38,628 nucleotides of DNA. It comes from a virus (taxonomy: Duplodnaviria; Heunggongvirae; Uroviricota; Caudoviricetes). The position numbers were made by a program, and so were the translations under genes. The stretch is from positions 1 to 38,628 of IMG/VR virus record IMGVR_UViG_2711768037_000009; one strand, 5' to 3'. Positions 357-16,155 of the stretch are shown in pieces. Positions within the stretch are counted from its first letter, which is position 1; every line of letters starts with the position of its first letter. The notes beneath the pieces are model-generated. The model was given only the letters and a program-made list of their open reading frames with translations, did not search any database and was not told where the DNA came from.

Positions 357-418
357 CTGCATTTTGTTAATTGAGATAATAAGCCATATAAGAAAAAAAT
401 TGTTTCGGAGTGGTTGAA

Positions 419-718
419 ATGTTGAACATTACCCAAGCCTACCAGGTGGCATTGATCAGTTCATCTCATACATCAGAGGAAGATGCTCGCCGATTCATGA
501 TCGCAAGCAATGAGCTGGATTGGGTTTCGCAAATTGACGGCGGTTGTATTGTCCACGCAGGGTTACAGGATGATGTCTGGAAAGACAACTTGCGTCGATA
601 TGGTATATCCGAAGACGCAATTGCTAACATTCAGAAAGTACTTGATGCAGGTTTTGACTCCGTACATTTTGATTGTGGTGCGCTGGTCGTTGAAGGGCTT
701 GAGAGTTGGCAATGGTGA
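419..718 (+). CDS. Hypothetical small protein (99 aa)
   Basis: ORF track 410..718; first ATG at 419 preceded by GGAG at ~407-410; no recognisable domain. Confidence 0.55.
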   Translation: MLNITQAYQVALISSSHTSEEDARRFMIASNELDWVSQIDGGCIVHAGLQDDVWKDNLRRYGISEDAIANIQKVLDAGFDSVHFDCGALVVEGLESWQW

Positions 719-860: not shown

Positions 861-1430
861 ATGGATGTGATGGAAACCAATAACCGACATACAAAACCTT
901 TGAATAACATTTATGCGTGGATTTTAGCTTTTATTCCAATTTGCTTCGGCATTCCGAACGAAGAGTATGCAAATTATGCTGCATTAATTGGAAGTTTAGC
1001 TGCCATCGGATTATTAGTGGCTGACAGAATGGCGATTTCGGAATCCGGCTATGAGCCACCTGCTATTTTATGGGGAATAGTTCTCATGCCAGTCTACCTA
1101 TGGAAGCGCGCGACTATAACGAAGAGCAGCAGACTACCATTTATTATAGTCGTTGCCTTGATGGCTGGTCTTGTCTTCATTGTCATACCGAAACAGGAAG
1201 ATAGTGTCATTGAGGACGCAGCCTGCCCTGTTGTGACAACTATTCTGAAAGAACATAATGGTTCTACTGCGGCAAAATGCATCAAGGTTAAAATTGACGA
1301 CAAGGTAACTGATAAGTTCTACAGAGCAACTGCTACACTGGATAATGGTAATGATATAAACATAACACTGGAGCTTGCCGGTAGAGAGAAATTGTATGTC
1401 CGTGTGCCAGGTGTTTATTTGAACGATTAA
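861..1430 (+). CDS. Predicted multi-pass inner-membrane protein (189 aa), function unknown
   Basis: ATG start; three to four hydrophobic helices (AWILAFIPICFGI, AALIGSLAAIGLLVA, ILWGIVLMPVYLW, LPFIIVVALMAGLVFIVI) followed by ~90-aa soluble C-terminal domain. Confidence 0.6.
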   Translation: MDVMETNNRHTKPLNNIYAWILAFIPICFGIPNEEYANYAALIGSLAAIGLLVADRMAISESGYEPPAILWGIVLMPVYLWKRATITKSSRLPFIIVVALMAGLVFIVIPKQEDSVIEDAACPVVTTILKEHNGSTAAKCIKVKIDDKVTDKFYRATATLDNGNDINITLELAGREKLYVRVPGVYLND

Positions 1431-1564
1431 CGGATAAAAACATTGATAATGGCGGTCACAATTTGATTCTTTTCTATAAGAATCCGTTGATCGCCACTAC
1501 TCCCCTTCCATACCTGCAATCACATCCTTAAATATCAATAGGTTAACGTTGTTTATACAAATAA

Positions 1565-1582
1565 GAAAACAACTAAATAACA
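1565..1582. repeat. Direct repeat AAAACAACTAAATAACA, copy 1 (copy 2 at ~1795-1811)
   Basis: Identical 17-bp word found twice ~230 bp apart in the ORF-poor region. Confidence 0.5.
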
Positions 1583-1794
1583 GTTCAACGAAACGTCAAC
1601 GCTTTCTCCCGATTTGGTCTAAAAATTGACGTTTTCACACATCACTTCTTATACCCGTAATCTACGCAGCAGACAGCGCCACAGCGTCCAATTTTCACCA
1701 CAGACGCCCCAACACACTACCAACAAAAACACACGCTCAAAATCTCTCCCGTTGCGTTACACAACCATATAAACAACTTATTTTCAGGCATAAC

Positions 1795-1811
1795 AAAACA
1801 ACTAAATAACA
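1795..1811. repeat. Direct repeat AAAACAACTAAATAACA, copy 2
   Basis: Identical to the word at ~1565-1582. Confidence 0.5.
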
Positions 1812-1830
1812 CATATGCCATTCCCCAAAA

Positions 1831-1925
1831 CAACCAACCTCTTTATGGCAGGCTACCGAAAAGACCCACCTCTTCTCCCAGGCTACCGGACAACCAACCT
1901 AACTTTCACAGGCAATCCGAAAACA
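1831..1925. repeat. Iteron-like tandem repeats, cluster 1 (3 copies, ~30-bp period, core CCTCTT-N5-CAGGCTACCG)
   Basis: CAGGCTACCG at ~1849 and ~1879, degenerate CAGGCAATCCG at ~1909; CCTCTT/CCTAAC at ~1838, 1869, 1898. Confidence 0.5.
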
Positions 1926-2425
1926 TTCATACGCGCGATACCCACGACACGCCATTCCCCAAACAGCGAAGCAACACCTGAACCACTGAAACCCCAACGA
2001 AGTCTGTAACCGCAAGGATTCTCTCAATCCCAAAAGACACGAAACATAACAATCACGGGAAACGCCATTACCCAATACACGAACAACTACAAAAGCCTTT
2101 CACACGCACTCCAGACAAACAACTCAAACACAATAACGAAAGGAATCGCCCACCTGCCATTACTCCACACACGGAGAAGAACAATCACCAAAACGATGAG
2201 AACACCCCATAGAAGAACCACCGCAAAACGAACGAAACCACATACACCGACAGAGAGAACAACACACCCAATTCACCAACAGAATTAGTCGCCGTATAGA
2301 ACGTTCTGGAAGGAGTGAGCATTAACGCCTATAGAGAGGTTGAGACAGATAAAACATAACATGTATAGCGAAGAAGCCAGGTATGTATAACTAAGAAATA
2401 CACAACATGTATAAGCTGGGAGGGA

Positions 2426-2449
2426 AGGAGGGGTGTCGCCTCCTTTTTC
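2426..2449 (+). terminator. Intrinsic terminator ending a rightward transcript of the A+C-rich region
   Basis: AGGAGG-ggtgtcg-CCTCCT hairpin followed by TTTTT. Confidence 0.5.
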
Positions 2450-2496
2450 GTATTTATTCAACATCTTACCATCATCCCCCGTATCCCCTACGGTCA

Positions 2497-2700
2497 TCCT
2501 TCGGTCCATACAGGGAAAAGGCTGCATCCCGCTACAAAAACGGCTGGGTTGCCTTCGGGAAACGGTCGAGTTGCCTGTGTGGATTTCGGGAAAAGGCTCG
2601 ATGCCGGTTCAGGAACGGCGGCGTACCGGTATAGCGAGAGGGAGAGTTGCGGCTGGCCACCTGCAATGTTCGGGAAGAAGAGAGGCGCTCACGTGAAGGC
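2497..2700. other. GC-rich block with repeated TTCGGGAAA(A)GGCT-type motifs; candidate structured RNA or protein-binding array
   Basis: Motif variants at ~2510, 2553, 2583, 2669 and 2793; only overlapping six-frame ORFs without RBS. Confidence 0.3.
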
Positions 2701-2955
2701 GAACCTACTTACCGCTGGATTCCCTCTGAATGCCCAGTTACAGCGTAATTGTGCCAGACAGCCAACGGGTCACAATCGATTTCAGTAGGTTTTCGGGGAG
2801 ATGATTATTCTGCCCACCAGCCATCTTCGGCCACTAAATCAGAATAATGTAAAAGTGTACTCTGTACTGAACCTGAAAACTCACTGCCAAAACCACATTC
2901 ACCGGAATAAAATCCTTTTTCGCCTGTGCGTTATTGCGATAATAACACCATTAAG

Positions 2956-2968
2956 AAAACATCTTGTT
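2956..2968. promoter_or_regulatory. AAACA-TCT-TGTTT palindrome just upstream of the RBS of the 2982 gene
   Basis: Member of the AAACA-N3-TGTTT family; coordinates +/-2. Confidence 0.35.
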
Positions 2969-2981
2969 TAAGGATTGCTTT

Positions 2982-3311
2982 ATGTTTGCAAATATCGACA
3001 TCAACCAAATTAAGAAATTGACTCAAAAAGAGTTTGACCAGTTTTATGAGCTGGAAGGTTGGTCTTCCACTCTGATTAATTCAAGATGGGTGCTGGAGCT
3101 GATGACTCGTGATGATGCACCTGCTTTGATGATTAGCGACCTGGGTGATGATGCTGACTTTATGGATATGAGCGAATTTTGTGTGGACACATACAACCGC
3201 AGCCAGAAGTACTACTTCACATGCGATAGCGAAAATGACGTGATTTCTAAGGTCTATCTTCACCTCGTCCAGCATTGGGACGTTCAGGAGTTTCTTGAGG
3301 TATTCGCGTAA
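2982..3311 (+). CDS. Small acidic protein (110 aa), function unknown
   Basis: ORF track 2964..3311; ATG at residue 7 preceded by AAGGA; about 21 Asp+Glu against 8 Lys+Arg. Confidence 0.6.
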   Translation: MFANIDINQIKKLTQKEFDQFYELEGWSSTLINSRWVLELMTRDDAPALMISDLGDDADFMDMSEFCVDTYNRSQKYYFTCDSENDVISKVYLHLVQHWDVQEFLEVFA

Positions 3312-3441
3312 CCCCAACCAAAGCCAGCATTGCTGGCTTAATTTCATCTGTAGCCGCAGGGAAGAACCTGCATATCGCTCATGCGCCTGATCAATATGCT
3401 TTGTAGCCGTTTTCTTACTGGTATTATTTACGCAATTGAGA

Positions 3442-3454
3442 AAACAAGTTATTT
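3442..3454. promoter_or_regulatory. AAACA-AGT-TATTT motif (one mismatch) upstream of the 3466 gene
   Basis: AAACA-N3-TGTTT family member overlapping the 5' leader. Confidence 0.3.
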
Positions 3455-3465
3455 ACGAGGTTGTG

Positions 3466-3777
3466 ATGGATAAGTCACTGATACTGGGGCTGGACAAAGA
3501 CCAGAAGAGAAAAGAGAAGCCTGCACTGGTTGCTCAATTAACTTTGCTGGACATCGTTGCCAATGGAACCTCTATTCGTCTGTTCCGTGAAACAGCGGTG
3601 TCTTTCGATAAAAACACTTTTACTCGTTATGTAATGAATGTTCGTCGCCAGCGTGGAAAAGGCTGGATGGCATTTCAAAGAATGTGGCCGGAACATCAGC
3701 TGGAACTGGCTTTGATGGAAGTAAACCGCGTGGCCCAGCAAGAAATTCAGAGAGCATCAGTGATGGCAATAGCCTGA
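3466..3777 (+). CDS. Hypothetical protein (103 aa)
   Basis: ORF track 3436..3777; ATG at 3466 preceded by GAGG. Confidence 0.6.
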   Translation: MDKSLILGLDKDQKRKEKPALVAQLTLLDIVANGTSIRLFRETAVSFDKNTFTRYVMNVRRQRGKGWMAFQRMWPEHQLELALMEVNRVAQQEIQRASVMAIA

Positions 3778-3903: not shown

Positions 3904-4299
3904 ATGACCGTTAAACGCGAAAAACTGACAGTTGATGTTTACTATGCCTCTGAAACCGCCGAAGGTAAGAATGTGGCAAAAATCACCGTTGTTACGTACA
4001 ACACCGAAACTGGTGCCGAAGTACAGGCCAGTACGATCGTGCGTAAAGGTGATGCCTCCGGCGGAGAGTACGCGACTCAATACCAGTCCATTCTCGATGC
4101 AACTGACCCGCTGCTGCTGAAAATCGAGAACTACTTCCGCCAGGTTGATGAAGAGGTGTTTGAAACCATGATGAGTATGGTTAATTCCGTATTCACCTCC
4201 AGTCTGAACACCAGCACCACCTGGATTGGTCAGTACGGCCTGCGCATTACCTCTGGCATTCCTGCCGACACCTTAATCCCTGAAAGCGTATTCGCTTAA
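3904..4299 (+). CDS. Hypothetical protein (131 aa)
   Basis: ATG start preceded by GGAGAG; bracketed by terminators. Confidence 0.65.
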   Translation: MTVKREKLTVDVYYASETAEGKNVAKITVVTYNTETGAEVQASTIVRKGDASGGEYATQYQSILDATDPLLLKIENYFRQVDEEVFETMMSMVNSVFTSSLNTSTTWIGQYGLRITSGIPADTLIPESVFA

Positions 4300-4336: not shown

Positions 4337-4344
4337 ATGCCCGA

Positions 4345-4357
4345 TAACAATTTGTTT
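4345..4357. promoter_or_regulatory. TAACAATTTGTTTT motif, near-identical to the copy at 342-356
   Basis: AACA-ATT-TGTTT followed by the same TCTGC as at 357-361. Confidence 0.4.
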
Positions 4358-4523
4358 TCTGCCTTATCTGATTTGTGAAAATGATTTCACTGAAGCAACT
4401 TAATAAGGAAACCATCATGGACTTGATATCTATATCGAGACGCAGCCTAAAAACGATCTGAATAACGAGGCATCCAGAAAGCAGGTTGCTTACTTCCGTA
4501 AGTTCAATGCGCTCGTTGGGTGG

Positions 4524-4790
4524 ATGGAGCGCAACGTAGGTGAAGTCGAAAATTGTGAGCTTTTAGAATTAACGATGAATGACATTTGTCTTCTGAAAGC
4601 TCATTTGATGCACATAAACGAAAGCAATTGCGAAGAGTACTTGCCTACTCGGGAAGGTTTTTTCTTCGGCAGTCAGGAGTACGACGAAGGTTACTGGCAT
4701 GACGTGGATAAGCTGAAAAAACTTGTGGAAGACCTGATCAGGAACCACGACTTTCACAATAACAGACTGACCTTCTGCGCCTGGTGGTAA
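4524..4790 (+). CDS. Hypothetical protein (88 aa); true start uncertain
   Basis: ATG at 4524 with poor SD spacing; same frame is open upstream to ~4407 without an ATG; a strong RBS (AAGGA) at ~4405 serves a 14-codon ORF in another frame. Confidence 0.5.
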   Translation: MERNVGEVENCELLELTMNDICLLKAHLMHINESNCEEYLPTREGFFFGSQEYDEGYWHDVDKLKKLVEDLIRNHDFHNNRLTFCAWW

Positions 4791-4972: not shown

Positions 4973-5110
4973 TTTTAATAACCGAAGGTTAGTTTGAAAC
5001 CTGGCTATCAACTTCCAGAACCTTTCTTGTGTATTCAGCCTGTATTAACTTCTTTTATGCCTTATCTACACTGCGATAATTACACCAACAAGAAAACAAG
5101 AGGAAAGCAG

Positions 5111-5308
5111 ATGAAAACTATTACTCAAGTCCAGCAAATCTGGGCGCAGCTGGCAAATGAGCCTGTGGATAACAATCAGCAGCTTGAGCGCGCATTTCAC
5201 CATTTTGAAGCCGGTGACAGCATCATTGACGTGTGGGTGTGGATCGACGGGCTGTGTCCAGATATCACCGTTGCCCAGTTGCAGCAGGTGGGGAGGCACG
5301 ATGACTGA
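5111..5308 (+). CDS. Hypothetical protein (66 aa)
   Basis: ORF track 4994..5308; ATG at 5111 preceded by AGGAAAG. Confidence 0.5.
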   Translation: MKTITQVQQIWAQLANEPVDNNQQLERAFHHFEAGDSIIDVWVWIDGLCPDITVAQLQQVGRHDD

Positions 5309-5350
5309 TTTCACCATTACCCCAAAAGCACAAAATGTATTCCTTGAATC

Positions 5351-5515
5351 ATGGCTGAATTTGCCGCATTAAGTGAGAGTATTACGATGGCAAAATTGAC
5401 CAGAGCGCAGGAGCATGACCTGCGACGCGCAATTTATGATCTTGAAAGAGTTCGTTGCAGCACATCGAAAGCAATGAGATATAGGCCACCAGTTAACGCT
5501 GGTGGCCTTAAATGA
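5351..5515 (+). CDS. Possible small protein (42-54 aa; ATG at 5351 or 5387)
   Basis: Open frame ending in TGA inside the downstream hairpin element; weak RBS. Confidence 0.25.
   Translation: MAEFAALSESITMAKLTRAQEHDLRRAIYDLERVRCSTSKAMRYRPPVNAGGLK
5483..5508 (+). other. Perfect 10-bp-stem hairpin AGGCCACCAG-ttaacg-CTGGTGGCCT; terminator-like but no U-tract
   Basis: Seen directly; related words at ~4943 and ~6200. Confidence 0.45.
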
Positions 5516-5527
5516 CCATCCTGTTCC

Positions 5528-5604
5528 CCGCAGGCTAAAAACACCAACCTCTTACCTCCAGGCAACCGACAAACCTACCTGTTCCCGTCCGGCTACCGCA
5601 ACTT
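5528..5604. repeat. Iteron-like tandem repeats, cluster 2 (3 copies, same family and orientation as cluster 1)
   Basis: GCAGGCTAAAA, CCAACCTCTTACCTCCAGGCAACCG, CCTACCTGTTCCCGTCCGGCTACCG. Confidence 0.5.
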
Positions 5605-5651
5605 ACCACTTTGACGCCTTATTCGTACAACGATAATTAACACCAGCAAGA

Positions 5652-5664
5652 AAACAATTTGTTA
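5652..5664. promoter_or_regulatory. AAACA-ATT-TGTTA motif upstream of the 5685 gene
   Basis: AAACA-N3-TGTTT family, one mismatch. Confidence 0.35.
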
Positions 5665-5684
5665 TTTACGATAAGGAATTAATC

Positions 5685-6167
5685 ATGAATTTTATCGCTA
5701 CTGTAAACGCACCCGCACATGGCAATATCGCAGTAACGTTCTCTGACATTGAAAAACGAGTACTTGGTGCATGGCGCGACAATGAGACGGTAGAACTGTC
5801 AGCACAAGAAAAATGCATTATTGCACGTGACATCATTGGTAATCGTCGTTACTCGCGGGTATTTGAGAAAGCGTATGTGGTAAATTCTGGATTCGGAACG
5901 TTCGTCTTTCCGGTGCGCTCCGGGCGATTCTGCCAGTCCAAGCTGATTGAGTTCGCTACGCAGATTTCTGTCTGGATTAAAACTCAATCGTCGTTCAAAT
6001 TTTCCGACGATGAAGCAGTATCGCAGGGGATGCAGATCGCCAACAATGCGATTAAATGCAAAAACATTACGTATGCCGCTGGCGTTGACACATGGAAACT
6101 GTTTTGCGCTAACTTTATGCTGAATGTATACGCAAGCAACCGCATCCACATCCTTGATGGCGTGTAA
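5685..6167 (+). CDS. Hypothetical protein (160 aa)
   Basis: ATG preceded by AAGGA at 8-nt spacing; followed by a terminator. Confidence 0.65.
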   Translation: MNFIATVNAPAHGNIAVTFSDIEKRVLGAWRDNETVELSAQEKCIIARDIIGNRRYSRVFEKAYVVNSGFGTFVFPVRSGRFCQSKLIEFATQISVWIKTQSSFKFSDDEAVSQGMQIANNAIKCKNITYAAGVDTWKLFCANFMLNVYASNRIHILDGV

Positions 6168-6175
6168 CTGAGAAG

Positions 6176-6199
6176 AGGGCCAGAAACGGCCCTTTCTCT
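6176..6199 (+). terminator. Intrinsic terminator
   Basis: AGGGCC-agaaac-GGCCCT hairpin followed by TTCTCT. Confidence 0.55.
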
Positions 6200-6251
6200 A
6201 TAGCCACCAGTTGCCGCAGGGAAATTTTCAGAAACGGCAAGGAACGCATTC

Positions 6252-6560
6252 ATGAGCCGACGGGAAACGGCCAGGATTTTTTCGGGAAACGGCGGCATTC
6301 GCCTTGATGTAGAAAAACATCGGGAAGCTGGTGGAATCCAACCAGCGGCTGTCGGACAGGTGAGCGGGGAAAATTATGATGACTTTCGTCGCCCGAGACA
6401 TCCAGATTTCTTTCGTAGCGTAATCACATACGTGATTAATTGGTGTGATTATGTGAGAAATCACGCGCACATAATACGCGAGCGGATACAGAACAAAACA
6501 AAATGCCGATCCGCGCCGACAATTAAACGCGGATCACATAGCAAGACAAAAAGCCAATGA
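6252..6560 (+). CDS. Doubtful ORF (102 aa, Arg-rich) in a region dense with inverted repeats
   Basis: ATG with AAGGA upstream, but atypical composition and overlapping palindromes. Confidence 0.25.
   Translation: MSRRETARIFSGNGGIRLDVEKHREAGGIQPAAVGQVSGENYDDFRRPRHPDFFRSVITYVINWCDYVRNHAHIIRERIQNKTKCRSAPTIKRGSHSKTKSQ
6420..6540. promoter_or_regulatory. Cluster of inverted repeats (ATCAC/GTGAT words, ATTATGTG-N12-CACATAAT, GATCCGCG-N12-CGCGGATC); candidate operator or origin
   Basis: Several dyad symmetries within ~120 bp in the convergent intergenic region. Confidence 0.3.
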
Positions 6561-6758
6561 TTAACTATGCGCTATAGCGCAATATAACGCGTTTTAAGCG
6601 CATTAATGTGTTAAGTAATGGGTATGTACTGGCAAGGATATAAAAGCGCGTCTATGGCGTTATTTTGGTGCTTGTTTTTATGTTGTTGGAGTGAGTCAAA
6701 GACAATAAAAAACGCGCTAATGATGGCGCGTTATGGTGGGAGTATTGGAAACGAAAAA

Positions 6759-6777
6759 AGCGCCCACTATGGGCGCT
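6759..6777. terminator. Bidirectional intrinsic terminator
   Basis: AGCGCCC-actat-GGGCGCT hairpin flanked by A-run upstream and T-run downstream. Confidence 0.65.
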
Positions 6778-6782
6778 CGATT

Positions 6783-7013
6783 TTATTTGTGTAAACTGAT
6801 TTTAAATCCCATTTCTACAAACGCTTTTAACATTAAAAATATATCAGCGTCGTTCACGTCTGCTTTTTTTCGCTCCTGGTCGCTCAATAAGTCAATTTTG
6901 CGCGTCGTTTCATCTATAAGCTCGACTGCGCGCCCAGCGTAACCAGCGATCCCAGCGATGCGATTAACATAATATTCATTATGGACGTTAACGCCAGCGA
7001 TAAGAACAAACAT
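6783..7013 (-). CDS. Small protein (76 aa), unknown
   Basis: ATG preceded by perfect SD AAGGAG at 8-nt spacing. Confidence 0.6.
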   Translation of the reverse strand: MFVLIAGVNVHNEYYVNRIAGIAGYAGRAVELIDETTRKIDLLSDQERKKADVNDADIFLMLKAFVEMGFKISLHK

Positions 7014-10914: not shown

Positions 10915-12474
10915 CTAATCTCGTTTCAGAACTCTAAAATCGAATGCGCCATCAATAGGCAATACACCTTCCGCAAAGCCAGGTGTGGTGTCGATGATGT
11001 GTTTTCGCTCATAAGAGTGAGACAACAGATATTTGTTGCTAATGTCAATAAAATCAGTGATAAAACATACGTTTGCCTGATTCTTCTTGGCTCGTAAGCC
11101 ACGACCGACACGCTGTCTCATTTCAACTTCTGCTTTCCCACCACCAGCAAGAATGACCGCACCAACGCTTGGCACATCAACACCAACATCCAGAATAGTC
11201 GAGCCTATTAAAACATCTATTTCACCAGATGCTAAACTGTTCAGCTTTGCTTGCCTTGTCGTCTGGTTAGATTCACCATAGATGAAATCAACTCTAAGAC
11301 CTGACTCCTTCATCATCTCCATCAGGATTTGCCCGTGGCGTTTAAGACGAACCAGAGTCATGCAGTTGAGTGAATGTTGTTTATAAAGCAATGCCTCGCG
11401 CACTATGGCCTCATTACGTCCCAAATTATACACGATCCCCAACTGATAAGCCTTTTGGTAGGCGGTGCTCATACCAACTCTAAAATTGAGGTGTTTGTTG
11501 GCAAGTTCGGCCTTGATTCTGGCCTCGTCTGGCTTGTAGGCAACTTTATGATAAAGGAAGTACGGCTTTGCCAGAATGCCTCGATCAATCAGGTACTTTT
11601 CTGTGACTTTAATTTCAATTCGCCCGGCCACAGCCATCAGACGCATGTTGGCTTCTGTAGAATCCTTCATGAACGGCGTGGCTGTAAGCGCCAGACGATA
11701 GTCTGCGTTCACACATAATCTGGCAATGTCATAGAAATTAGAACCTGAAGACTCATGCGCCTCTTCCAGAATAAGCAGAGATACACTTGAAAGGAAGCGT
11801 TTCACCAAGTCCCGACGTTTGAGGTGGTAGCTCTTCTTATCTGGAGTTGCATCGCGTGGTGGCTCTTCAAGGAAACTTGCCAGAGTTTGAACTGTAGCGA
11901 CGTTGATATGTCGTGATACCTGGAACTCACCCGAGCCAATTACTCCAACCTCTTGGTCCTTTAACCACGGTTCGCCATTTTCGGCGCGGTAGTCGATGGA
12001 TCTCTGGAAGTTTTCGGCCATTTGAAACATCAGAACAGAGCGGGTTGTTAAAAATAATGTCATTCGACCGATACGTGCAGCTGCTTTGCAGGCAACGTTA
12101 GATTTCCCGCCACCAGTAGCGATCTGCGCAATCATCATTCCCTCTCGAACCAGTGTTTCTACTGTCTGATCTTGGTACGCATAATCAGGGTTGTATGGAA
12201 ATGGGTTAACCGCCGGATTTGGTTTACCCAGCGCCGGGGCTTTGTCTTTGCGGATATGAACACATTTGATGCCCGCCTTGTTCAAATTAGCCGCCACGGG
12301 CTTGGCAAAGCCAGCAGGGAACGAGTTTTTGCTCCAGTTGAACATTGTGCTTGTGCCCTTCCAGTCGCCAGCCTCGACTTCGTAGCTCAACATTTGCTGC
12401 ACCAGTTGCTTTACCTTGTCATCTGCGCCAGAAATAAGCGCATTTACTGCGTTAGATACAATCCGAACAGTCAT
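10915..12474 (-). CDS. Superfamily-2 (DEAD/DEAH-box type) helicase, 519 aa
   Basis: Walker A ATGGGKS, motif II LILEEAHE, motif III LTATP, motif VI QRVGRGLR; GAGG SD before the ATG. Confidence 0.85.
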   Translation of the reverse strand: MTVRIVSNAVNALISGADDKVKQLVQQMLSYEVEAGDWKGTSTMFNWSKNSFPAGFAKPVAANLNKAGIKCVHIRKDKAPALGKPNPAVNPFPYNPDYAYQDQTVETLVREGMMIAQIATGGGKSNVACKAAARIGRMTLFLTTRSVLMFQMAENFQRSIDYRAENGEPWLKDQEVGVIGSGEFQVSRHINVATVQTLASFLEEPPRDATPDKKSYHLKRRDLVKRFLSSVSLLILEEAHESSGSNFYDIARLCVNADYRLALTATPFMKDSTEANMRLMAVAGRIEIKVTEKYLIDRGILAKPYFLYHKVAYKPDEARIKAELANKHLNFRVGMSTAYQKAYQLGIVYNLGRNEAIVREALLYKQHSLNCMTLVRLKRHGQILMEMMKESGLRVDFIYGESNQTTRQAKLNSLASGEIDVLIGSTILDVGVDVPSVGAVILAGGGKAEVEMRQRVGRGLRAKKNQANVCFITDFIDISNKYLLSHSYERKHIIDTTPGFAEGVLPIDGAFDFRVLKRD

Positions 12475-16060: not shown

Positions 16061-16077
16061 TAATTAAACACCCCAGA

Positions 16078-16090
16078 AAACAAGTTGGTT
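16078..16090. promoter_or_regulatory. AAACA-AGT-TGGTT motif upstream of terS
   Basis: AAACA-N3-TGTTT family, one mismatch. Confidence 0.3.
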
Positions 16091-16102
16091 AGCAGATGCA
16101 GT

Positions 16103-16115
16103 AAACAAGTTGTTT
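16103..16115. promoter_or_regulatory. AAACA-AGT-TGTTT perfect palindrome, followed by hairpin AGAGCGC-atggac-GCGCTCT just before the terS RBS
   Basis: Seen directly. Confidence 0.4.
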
Positions 16116-16155
16116 TAGAGCGCATGGACGCGCTCTGTGTGTTTTAGAGGGATCT

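Follow-up and report, generated by a model that had tools for sequence, protein, structure and literature searches.

The gene described here lies on the + strand at positions 2982 to 3311 of the window, by which we mean the whole 38,628-nucleotide stretch of DNA that was analyzed. It opens with an ATG at 2982 and closes with a TAA at 3309-3311, and its 110 codons, stop codon included, specify a protein of 109 aa with a mass of 12.96 kDa and a pI of 4.17. The first-pass annotation had described a strongly acidic 110-aa product with about 21 aspartate and glutamate residues against 8 lysine and arginine residues. Our counts agree with that description (13 Asp plus 8 Glu, together 19% of the protein, against 5 Lys plus 3 Arg), and only the length needs to be adjusted, to 109 aa. 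The gene and its flanks appear to form a self-contained unit that would consist of an extended -10, a palindromic operator, a Shine-Dalgarno sequence, the ORF and a hairpin. The features are listed below; the extended -10, the first palindrome and the Shine-Dalgarno sequence were read directly from the sequence.

2930 to 2946, no strand: palindrome GTTATTGCGATAATAAC, with 6-nt arms and a 5-nt spacer, which the first-pass annotation had named a regulatory palindrome.
2935 to 2943, + strand: candidate extended -10, TGCGATAAT, with TG at 2935-2936 and GATAAT at 2938-2943.
2955 to 2970, no strand: palindromic operator-like site GAAAACATCTTGTTTA, a copy of the AAACAAnTTGTTT motif that spans roughly +5 to +20 relative to the predicted transcription start.
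2970 to 2974, + strand: Shine-Dalgarno sequence AAGGA, 7 nt upstream of the ATG.
2982 to 3311, + strand: gene for the acidic protein of 109 aa (PHROG 7645), which is identical to RefSeq WP_000457884.1.
3321 to 3339, + strand: terminator-like hairpin AAGCCAGCATTGCTGGCTT, with an 8-bp stem, approximately -13 kcal/mol and a weak U tract.

The start codon at 2982 is also the one annotated by RefSeq in a 99.4%-identical plasmid, where the product is named "hypothetical protein". In the phage Cyrano the orthologue is annotated as CYRAN_105 and is 99.1% identical to the window protein. Comparison with Cyrano by the Nei-Gojobori method gave a dN/dS of 0.04, and comparison with a relative of 78% protein identity gave 0.15. 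Given these ratios and the existence of homologues down to 24% identity, the ORF is a genuine gene rather than a chance reading frame, and it is under purifying selection.

The window belongs to an SSU5-like E. coli phage-plasmid of approximately 108 kb. It contains terminase, portal, capsid, tape-measure and tail genes, along with ParB-like genes and a gene for a UvsW-like helicase, and the assignment follows from this mixture of virion and ParB-like genes and from the matches to plasmids. A 2-kb stretch around the ORF is 99.4% identical to the E. coli plasmid pOkiPb01698_2 (108.5 kb) and 91-95% identical to the Escherichia phages Cyrano (pLF82), CMS-2020a and PhiR41_1. Cyrano itself bears a close likeness to SSU5 (PMC9928086). 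The region around 2982-3311 is present in 242 of 5426 complete E. coli genomes and is plasmid-borne every time, so that SSU5-like phage-plasmids occur in approximately 4% of these genomes; some of them carry resistance genes. Counts in E. coli genomes are 216 for the terminase gene and 242 for the target region, indicating that nearly every element of the Escherichia lineage has the 2982-3311 gene; neither SSU5 itself nor the Klebsiella relatives have it.

Among 5.8 billion proteins, homologues of the 109-aa protein formed 9 clusters in a word-indexed search and 17 clusters in a profile search, and 1.84 billion representatives that were scanned exhaustively with HMMER yielded 9 matches. A full-length match (1-109 of 109, E=3.3e-75) places the protein in PHROG 7645, a family of unknown function. 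When the protein was compared with PLSDB by tblastn, 229 plasmids were found, comprising 221 from Escherichia, 6 from Shigella, 1 uncultured and 1 from Enterobacter, the last of which encodes a homologue with 34% identity. Likewise, tblastn identified four phage records, all of them Escherichia phages. Full-length distant members of the family, with 24-35% identity, all reside on contigs of approximately 40-110 kb that are syntenic with SSU5-like elements, and scans of IMG/VR and of GTDB species genomes for distant homologues added no context beyond SSU5-like elements. The PHROG 7645 family is tiny and confined to these elements. We found no literature on the accession or on PHROG 7645, and none relevant to early regulation in SSU5.

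Upstream of the gene, the extended -10 element TGCGATAAT presumably acts as the promoter, with transcription predicted to start near 2950. The sequence TGCGATAATAA is matched exactly at 2935-2945. TGCGATAAT is identical upstream of 6 of the 7 aligned homologues, the 78%-identity relative (L010) having TGGTATTAT in its place, and it is identical also in SSU5. A regulatory palindrome had been proposed at this position by the first-pass annotation. The palindrome, GTTATTGCGATAATAAC, does exist, but it consists mostly of the extended -10 and is unconserved in distant relatives. Its left arm is missing in lineages L003, L006, L009 and L008, and the -10 inside it is kept, so that GTTATTGCGATAATAAC is probably not an operator but a side effect of the -10 region.

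The palindrome that is conserved is GAAAACATCTTGTTTA, which starts eleven bases past TGCGATAAT and is followed by the Shine-Dalgarno sequence and the ATG. A AAACAAnTTGTTT palindrome is located downstream of the -10 in the upstream regions of 6 of 7 lineages, and in L008 it lies over the -35 region instead. The predicted fold of the leader RNA is no better than that of shuffled sequences (z=+0.66). Since the leader lacks a stable fold, we set aside an RNA-level role for the palindrome and consider a DNA-level role of GAAAACATCTTGTTTA more likely. LexA control of the gene was also considered and was rejected, as there is no LexA box nearby.

In three lineages a hairpin lies behind the gene, and those that come after the homologues in L003 and L008 have U tracts and are stronger than the one in the window, suggesting that the gene is monocistronic. 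A search with Rfam at gathering scores returned nothing in the window, with one sub-threshold match in 1400-3500. A 28-nt inverted repeat with 86% complementarity brackets the ORF at 2933-2960 and 3409-3436. We considered a mobile or invertible cassette as the explanation of this repeat and rejected it, as both genes share a partly palindromic promoter-operator module (GTTTTCT, the -10 and AGAAAAC).

Sites of the same type are dispersed throughout the element. The GAAAACATCTTGTTTA 16-mer has 18 matches in the window, corresponding to approximately 11 sites, as compared with 2.2 expected, and none of 100 shuffles reaches 18. For the 13-mer core AAACAAnTTGTTT, there are 18 sites in the 108.5-kb relative as compared with 0.5 in shuffles. 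AAACAAnTTGTTT sites in the window lie at 341-357, 1770-1785, 2955-2970, 3440-3456, 4343-4359, 5650-5666, 16076-16091 and 16101-16117, and sites are also found genome-wide in NZ_AP042587.1. Two stereotyped arrangements relative to the -10 elements can be distinguished. In type A, the -10 is followed after approximately 13 nt by ATAAGA-AAACAAnTTGTTT-A and then by the Shine-Dalgarno sequence and the ATG; in type B, the palindrome is positioned across the -35 region. Type A precedes the target gene and the neighboring genes for 103-aa and 160-aa proteins, and it also precedes genes for DUF5983, DUF1281, ParA-like ATPase, DnaB-like helicase, CobT-like, nrdB and TerB-like products. The small terminase gene has two tandem AAACAAnTTGTTT sites in front of it. 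All relatives examined, SSU5 included, contain the motif equally often. From the positions of these sites, we read them as the putative operator set of a dispersed regulon in the style of P1 C1, at which repression would take place.

The first-pass annotation had called this the first early gene. It is indeed the first ORF after a non-coding stretch of approximately 1.5 kb; however, its first position is lineage-specific and holds for the Escherichia lineage only. Early timing of its expression is suggested. In the lineage with 78% protein identity (L010), two small genes of 68 and 82 aa precede the homologue. In lineages at 28-33% identity, a homologue of the gene for the 103-aa basic protein, which is downstream in the window, is found upstream of the target homologue. 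The corresponding slot in SSU5 and in Klebsiella pJN2-26 is occupied by two other small acidic genes (71-72 aa, pI 4.3-4.4). The promoter module of SSU5 and pJN2-26 is identical to that of the window at 30 of 31 bases (TTATTGCGATAATAACACCATyAAGAAAACA), and the similarity ends right after the operator. The comparison was made between window positions 2930-2981 and L051 (SSU5) positions 11102-11160, together with L003, L006, L009 and L010 around 5000-6900. A conserved slot and promoter with exchangeable cargo indicate that the gene is accessory, and a core regulatory role is less likely for that reason. The promoter modules, being repeated, may serve as recombination joints.

The downstream 103-aa basic protein matches only phrog_5125, a family of unknown function, and its gene has its own -10, operator and terminator. 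We found no helix-turn-helix (HTH) or Pfam match in this protein. The locus thus does not have an acr-aca layout, given that the downstream gene lacks an HTH, has its own promoter and lies upstream of the homologue in other lineages. Another neighbor, the 131-aa protein encoded at 3904-4299 (PHROG 2473), has weak CARF/Csm6-like matches over residues 8-66 in three libraries (E=0.02-0.05). The matches are reproduced by the near-identical Cyrano copy alone; homologues of approximately 41% identity lack them, and a CARF-like assignment was rejected as probably due to chance.

The sequence that precedes the gene has features of its own. Within the gene-poor interval 1430-2980, approximately 900 bp at 1500-2400 are extremely asymmetric between the strands, with a GC skew of about -0.5 and an AT skew of up to +0.59, the + strand there being rich in A and C and nearly without G and T runs. 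We found no credible ORF and no Rfam match in 1500-2400, and its counterpart in Cyrano (CYRAN_103) is transcribed near the floor. A 30-nt unit is present in three repeats at 1833-1923. It is a matter of speculation that a C-rich, G-poor transcript from 1500-2400 would be an ideal Rho loading site. Related elements have a gene-free gap of similar size at the place of 1430-2980. In the GC-richer part of the non-coding stretch, two copies of a unit that begins with GGGAAAAGGCT are located at 2513-2624, 75 nt apart and with 76% identity; a shorter repeat related to this unit is found at 2544 and 2575, and a hairpin with a T run is found at 2422-2448. A DUF5983 gene lies at window positions 410-718, and DUF4942 genes are present in relatives (L003 at 614-2299, and CYRAN_90 of Cyrano). 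Both families are commonly found in plasmid leading regions and at accessory ends of enterobacterial islands. This context is a weak hint that the region serves establishment in new hosts.

Expression of the Cyrano orthologue can be followed in RNA-seq data for strain LF82, which carries Cyrano. These data were re-analyzed in PMC9928086, and the values below are log2(FPKM+5) in two replicates from S1 Table of that paper.

LB, stationary phase: CYRAN_105 at 4.4 / 2.3, which is background.
DMEM: CYRAN_105 at 5.6-5.8.
Macrophages, 1 h: CYRAN_105 at 7.5 / 7.8; large terminase at 3.0-3.2; capsid gene at 4.0.
Macrophages, 6 h: CYRAN_105 at 6.9 / 7.2; capsid gene at 7.4-7.8.

The putative ORF upstream, CYRAN_104, stays at approximately 3 at 1 h in macrophages, which indicates that transcription starts just before CYRAN_105, as the promoter assignment predicts, and the next gene downstream of CYRAN_105 is approximately 4-fold lower (PMC9928086). 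The pattern of CYRAN_105, in data that are a population average of lysogens in a complex setting, fits early derepression. It also fits a moron-like function that is expressed in lysogeny.

An AlphaFold2 model of the protein was built from a 10-sequence alignment; a 4-sequence alignment had given an unusable model (pLDDT 42) and was replaced. The resulting model has a pLDDT of 83.3 and a pTM of 0.78, and all five models fall at pLDDT 81.8-83.3. Its topology is beta (10-13), alpha (15-18), beta (24-32), beta (36-43), beta (46-53), alpha (56-60), alpha (68-73), beta (75-81), alpha (87-98) and alpha (101-108). The product is predicted to be a compact cytoplasmic alpha/beta protein, and it has no recognizable relatives outside SSU5-like elements. 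A Foldseek comparison of this model with the PDB gave no match with E<0.3, the best having an E of 0.31, with TM-scores of at most 0.36 among the matches listed. The comparison with BFVD gave no match with E<0.05 and TM-scores of at most 0.42. The solved DNA mimics are part of the PDB, and none of them is among the matches listed. Comparison of a predicted structure with known DNA mimics had been suggested as a check on the idea, advanced by the first-pass annotation, that the protein is a DNA mimic, and the outcome goes against that idea on the structural half of the refuting condition named there, in that the model is unlike any solved mimic (Foldseek against the PDB and BFVD; TM <0.45). However, DNA mimics are structurally diverse, and the lack of a fold match therefore does not exclude mimicry.

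Searches at the sequence level gave a similar result. At E up to 10, scanning the protein and each of the 10 family members with hmmscan against Pfam produced only five unrelated weak matches, each to a single member, and no match to the Ocr or ArdA families. NCBIfam yielded nothing credible for the 109-aa protein, no family among the PADLOC-DB defense models matched it at E up to 1, and searches of PDB chains with the sequence and with the family profile identified no credible relative. Several individual matches were considered and rejected. PDB multicystatin was matched by the single sequence at E=5e-5 without a passing domain, and the match disappeared with the family profile; Pfam Actin_micro was matched at E=0.029 by one family member only. 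Both were attributed to chance. A barstar-like protein, suggested by a Y-F-x-G...D-A-I-W...L motif and a C-terminal E-F-L helix, received an hhalign probability of 0.16% when the family was compared with barstar, and a SUKH/immunity-like protein was without Pfam or Foldseek PDB support. The ORF family is already catalogued as hypothetical and has a fold without a match.

We examined charge across the window and across the family. The net charge of the protein is -0.119 per residue, which ranks first among 45 ORFs in the window, and the next most acidic ORFs are at -0.114, -0.101 and -0.099 per residue. Its acidity is genuine without being extreme. Most of the small proteins encoded in this block are acidic, examples being SSU5_115 with a net charge of -16 and the product of window positions 4524-4790 at -0.114 per residue. 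Acidity is consequently a weak functional signature for the protein, and composition alone does not separate it from its neighbors. In the model, most of the 21 Asp and Glu residues fall within loops or at helix and strand termini.

We aligned 10 members, 5 of the 9 relatives being only 24-33% identical to the window protein, and the net charge is -13 to -15 in all 10 of them. Only nine acidic columns are conserved (positions 4, 17, 26, 44, 45, 53, 69, 86 and 103), and variable columns hold more than half of the acidic residues of each member. For a test of charge, residues were shuffled within alignment columns among seven non-redundant members. The observed standard deviation of net charge is 0.8, as compared with 3.9 in the column shuffles (P=0.0006), and smaller sets gave P=0.005 (five members) and P=0.02 (four members). 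The observed spread is far tighter than that of the shuffles, which shows that net negative charge has been selected and kept by compensating substitutions. Such a constant bulk charge is expected for electrostatic decoys but is not specific to them, and a constant net charge could also serve solubility or another role.

The next most acidic small gene of the window, at 4417-4790, belongs to PHROG 7971, a 124-aa family. Relative to pOkiPb01698_2, it has a 1-nt difference in a run of G (ATGGGAC as compared with ATGGAC) that puts the ATG of the window out of frame, and an 88-aa ORF remains in the window version, starting from an internal Met. The pOkiPb01698_2 copy has a 1-nt difference of its own that changes the C-terminus. 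These frame differences could reflect either a pseudogene, a phase-variable gene or a sequencing error.

We tentatively propose, with somewhat less than even confidence, that the protein is a charge-dependent, stoichiometric binding inhibitor or decoy of a basic, probably nucleic-acid-binding, protein. The protein would be made when the operator is freed, upon entry into a new cell, induction or stress, and would then bind its target in a charge-dependent manner, the target being a protein of the host or of a rival element. The inhibitory action, the class of target and any anti-defense role are what we infer here; searches of Pfam, NCBIfam, PADLOC, PDB and BFVD returned no tie of homology or fold to known inhibitors, DNA mimics or anti-defense proteins. 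With selected charge, no fold match, a swappable slot and an operator-controlled promoter, it is reasonable to regard the protein as a candidate inhibitor of a host protein. The narrower proposal of the first-pass annotation, that of a DNA mimic like Ocr or ArdA whose carboxylates would imitate the DNA backbone and block type I restriction, BREX or other DNA-binding defenses at the start of infection, seems to us rather improbable. The small size, Asp plus Glu content and pI of the protein are compatible with it, as are the selection on net charge, the variable accessory slot and the operator-controlled promoter, with the Cyrano orthologue expressed ahead of the late genes. Wang et al. (2013) screened for DNA mimics among proteins of <200 aa with at least 10 surface Asp/Glu and at least 10% of surface residues negative (PMC3902945), and the 109-aa protein falls below that size limit and also passes a looser form of the screen (<200 aa and at least 10 acidic residues). 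The absence of any Pfam match, and hence of one to the Ocr and ArdA families, weighs against mimicry, as does the absence of solved mimics from the Foldseek matches listed, and several neighboring small proteins are equally acidic. Moreover, SSU5 and the Klebsiella relatives contend with similar defenses and have no member of the family. The charge density, at only -0.12 per residue, is about half that of Ocr and close to that of ordinary acidic cytoplasmic proteins. It is also conceivable, but a long shot, that the protein represents a new structural family of charge-mimic (DNA-mimic-like) inhibitors and that the small-gene block with this gene at its head is an exchangeable counter-defense arsenal of SSU5-like phage-plasmids, every gene having a separate copy of the conserved promoter-operator module, which would double as a recombination joint, and all being released as one regulon on cell entry. 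If the protein is truly an anti-defense factor, it would have a new inhibitor fold and the whole block would be a place in which to seek more.

Two other roles compete with that of a binding inhibitor. The gene could be a conditionally expressed lysogenic-conversion ("moron"-like) gene whose product works from the resident plasmid rather than in the course of infection, for instance in stress adaptation, in superinfection exclusion or by modulating a host regulator, to the benefit of the host or of the element. We consider this unlikely, although the layout of a single ORF within its own putative -10, operator and hairpin is, at the sequence level, the autonomous one expected of such genes. 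Transcripts of the orthologue are present in the DMEM lysogen, and after 1 h in macrophages their level has gone up 10- to 20-fold, with the terminase, portal and capsid genes not yet above the floor; the Cyrano lytic cycle appears to be blocked in macrophages, as the authors of that study conclude (PMC9928086). However, CYRAN_105 does not rise above background in LB, the same authors do not include it in their list of 13 Cyrano morons (PMC9928086), late genes do rise at 6 h in a pattern that fits a sub-population entering the lytic programme, and the operator is common to the DnaB-like helicase gene, nrdB and the terminase region, which points to lytic or early co-regulation. The remaining role is that of a self-regulatory factor, either an antirepressor that titrates the AAACAAnTTGTTT-binding protein as an acidic mimic of operator DNA, or a modulator of replication or partition. 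An acidic protein could bind a DNA-binding domain, CYRAN_105 is induced together with a HumD-like gene under the SOS-inducing macrophage condition, and the gene sits under the same operator that it would relieve, which is a common feed-forward design exemplified by P1 coi under the C1 operator. What makes this very unlikely in our judgment is that the operator system is kept in SSU5, in Klebsiella and in all other relatives, and the gene is missing from SSU5 and Klebsiella; operators that are conserved where the gene is absent mean that the gene cannot be a core part of the switch, and we lowered our estimate on this basis. The lack of a LexA box near the gene and the variation of its position and neighbors between lineages argue in the same direction.

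The gene and its product can be compared with several known systems. Like acr-aca and other anti-defense loci, this region encodes small, often acidic orphan proteins with their own promoters, in a slot whose cargo is swapped between related elements; unlike acr-aca loci, it has no recognizable HTH (Aca-like) partner in an operon, and we found no homology to known Acr or anti-defense proteins. As with ArdA, sArdA and the Ugi/SAUGI/p56 inhibitors, we are dealing with a small acidic protein of a mobile element that satisfies loose limits of <200 aa and at least 10 Asp/Glu (PMC3902945), but HMM and structure searches showed no similarity of the window protein to any of these inhibitors.

In the C1 regulon of the phage-plasmid P1, early and accessory genes at scattered places are controlled through many dispersed operators. 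The operator of P1 has an asymmetric 17-mer sequence, whereas the motif described here is the symmetric 13-mer AAACAAnTTGTTT, a putative operator whose role we read from its position. Similar to the P1 arrangement, some 18 operator copies adjoin the -10 elements of many separate units across a phage-plasmid of approximately 108 kb, among them those of the target gene and of the DnaB-like helicase gene.

T7 Ocr (gp0.3) is a DNA-mimic inhibitor of type I restriction-modification, BREX and RNA polymerase. It is an all-helical, elongated dimer with approximately twice the charge density of the window protein, which is predicted to be of mixed alpha/beta structure and is without a Pfam or fold match. 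The likeness to Ocr lies in a small (approximately 110 aa), acidic protein encoded by the first gene behind an early-type promoter in the window. PMC3439906 takes as its subject how robust Ocr mimicry is when many acidic residues are lost, and in the PHROG 7645 family it is overall charge, more than single residues, that has apparently been preserved by selection.
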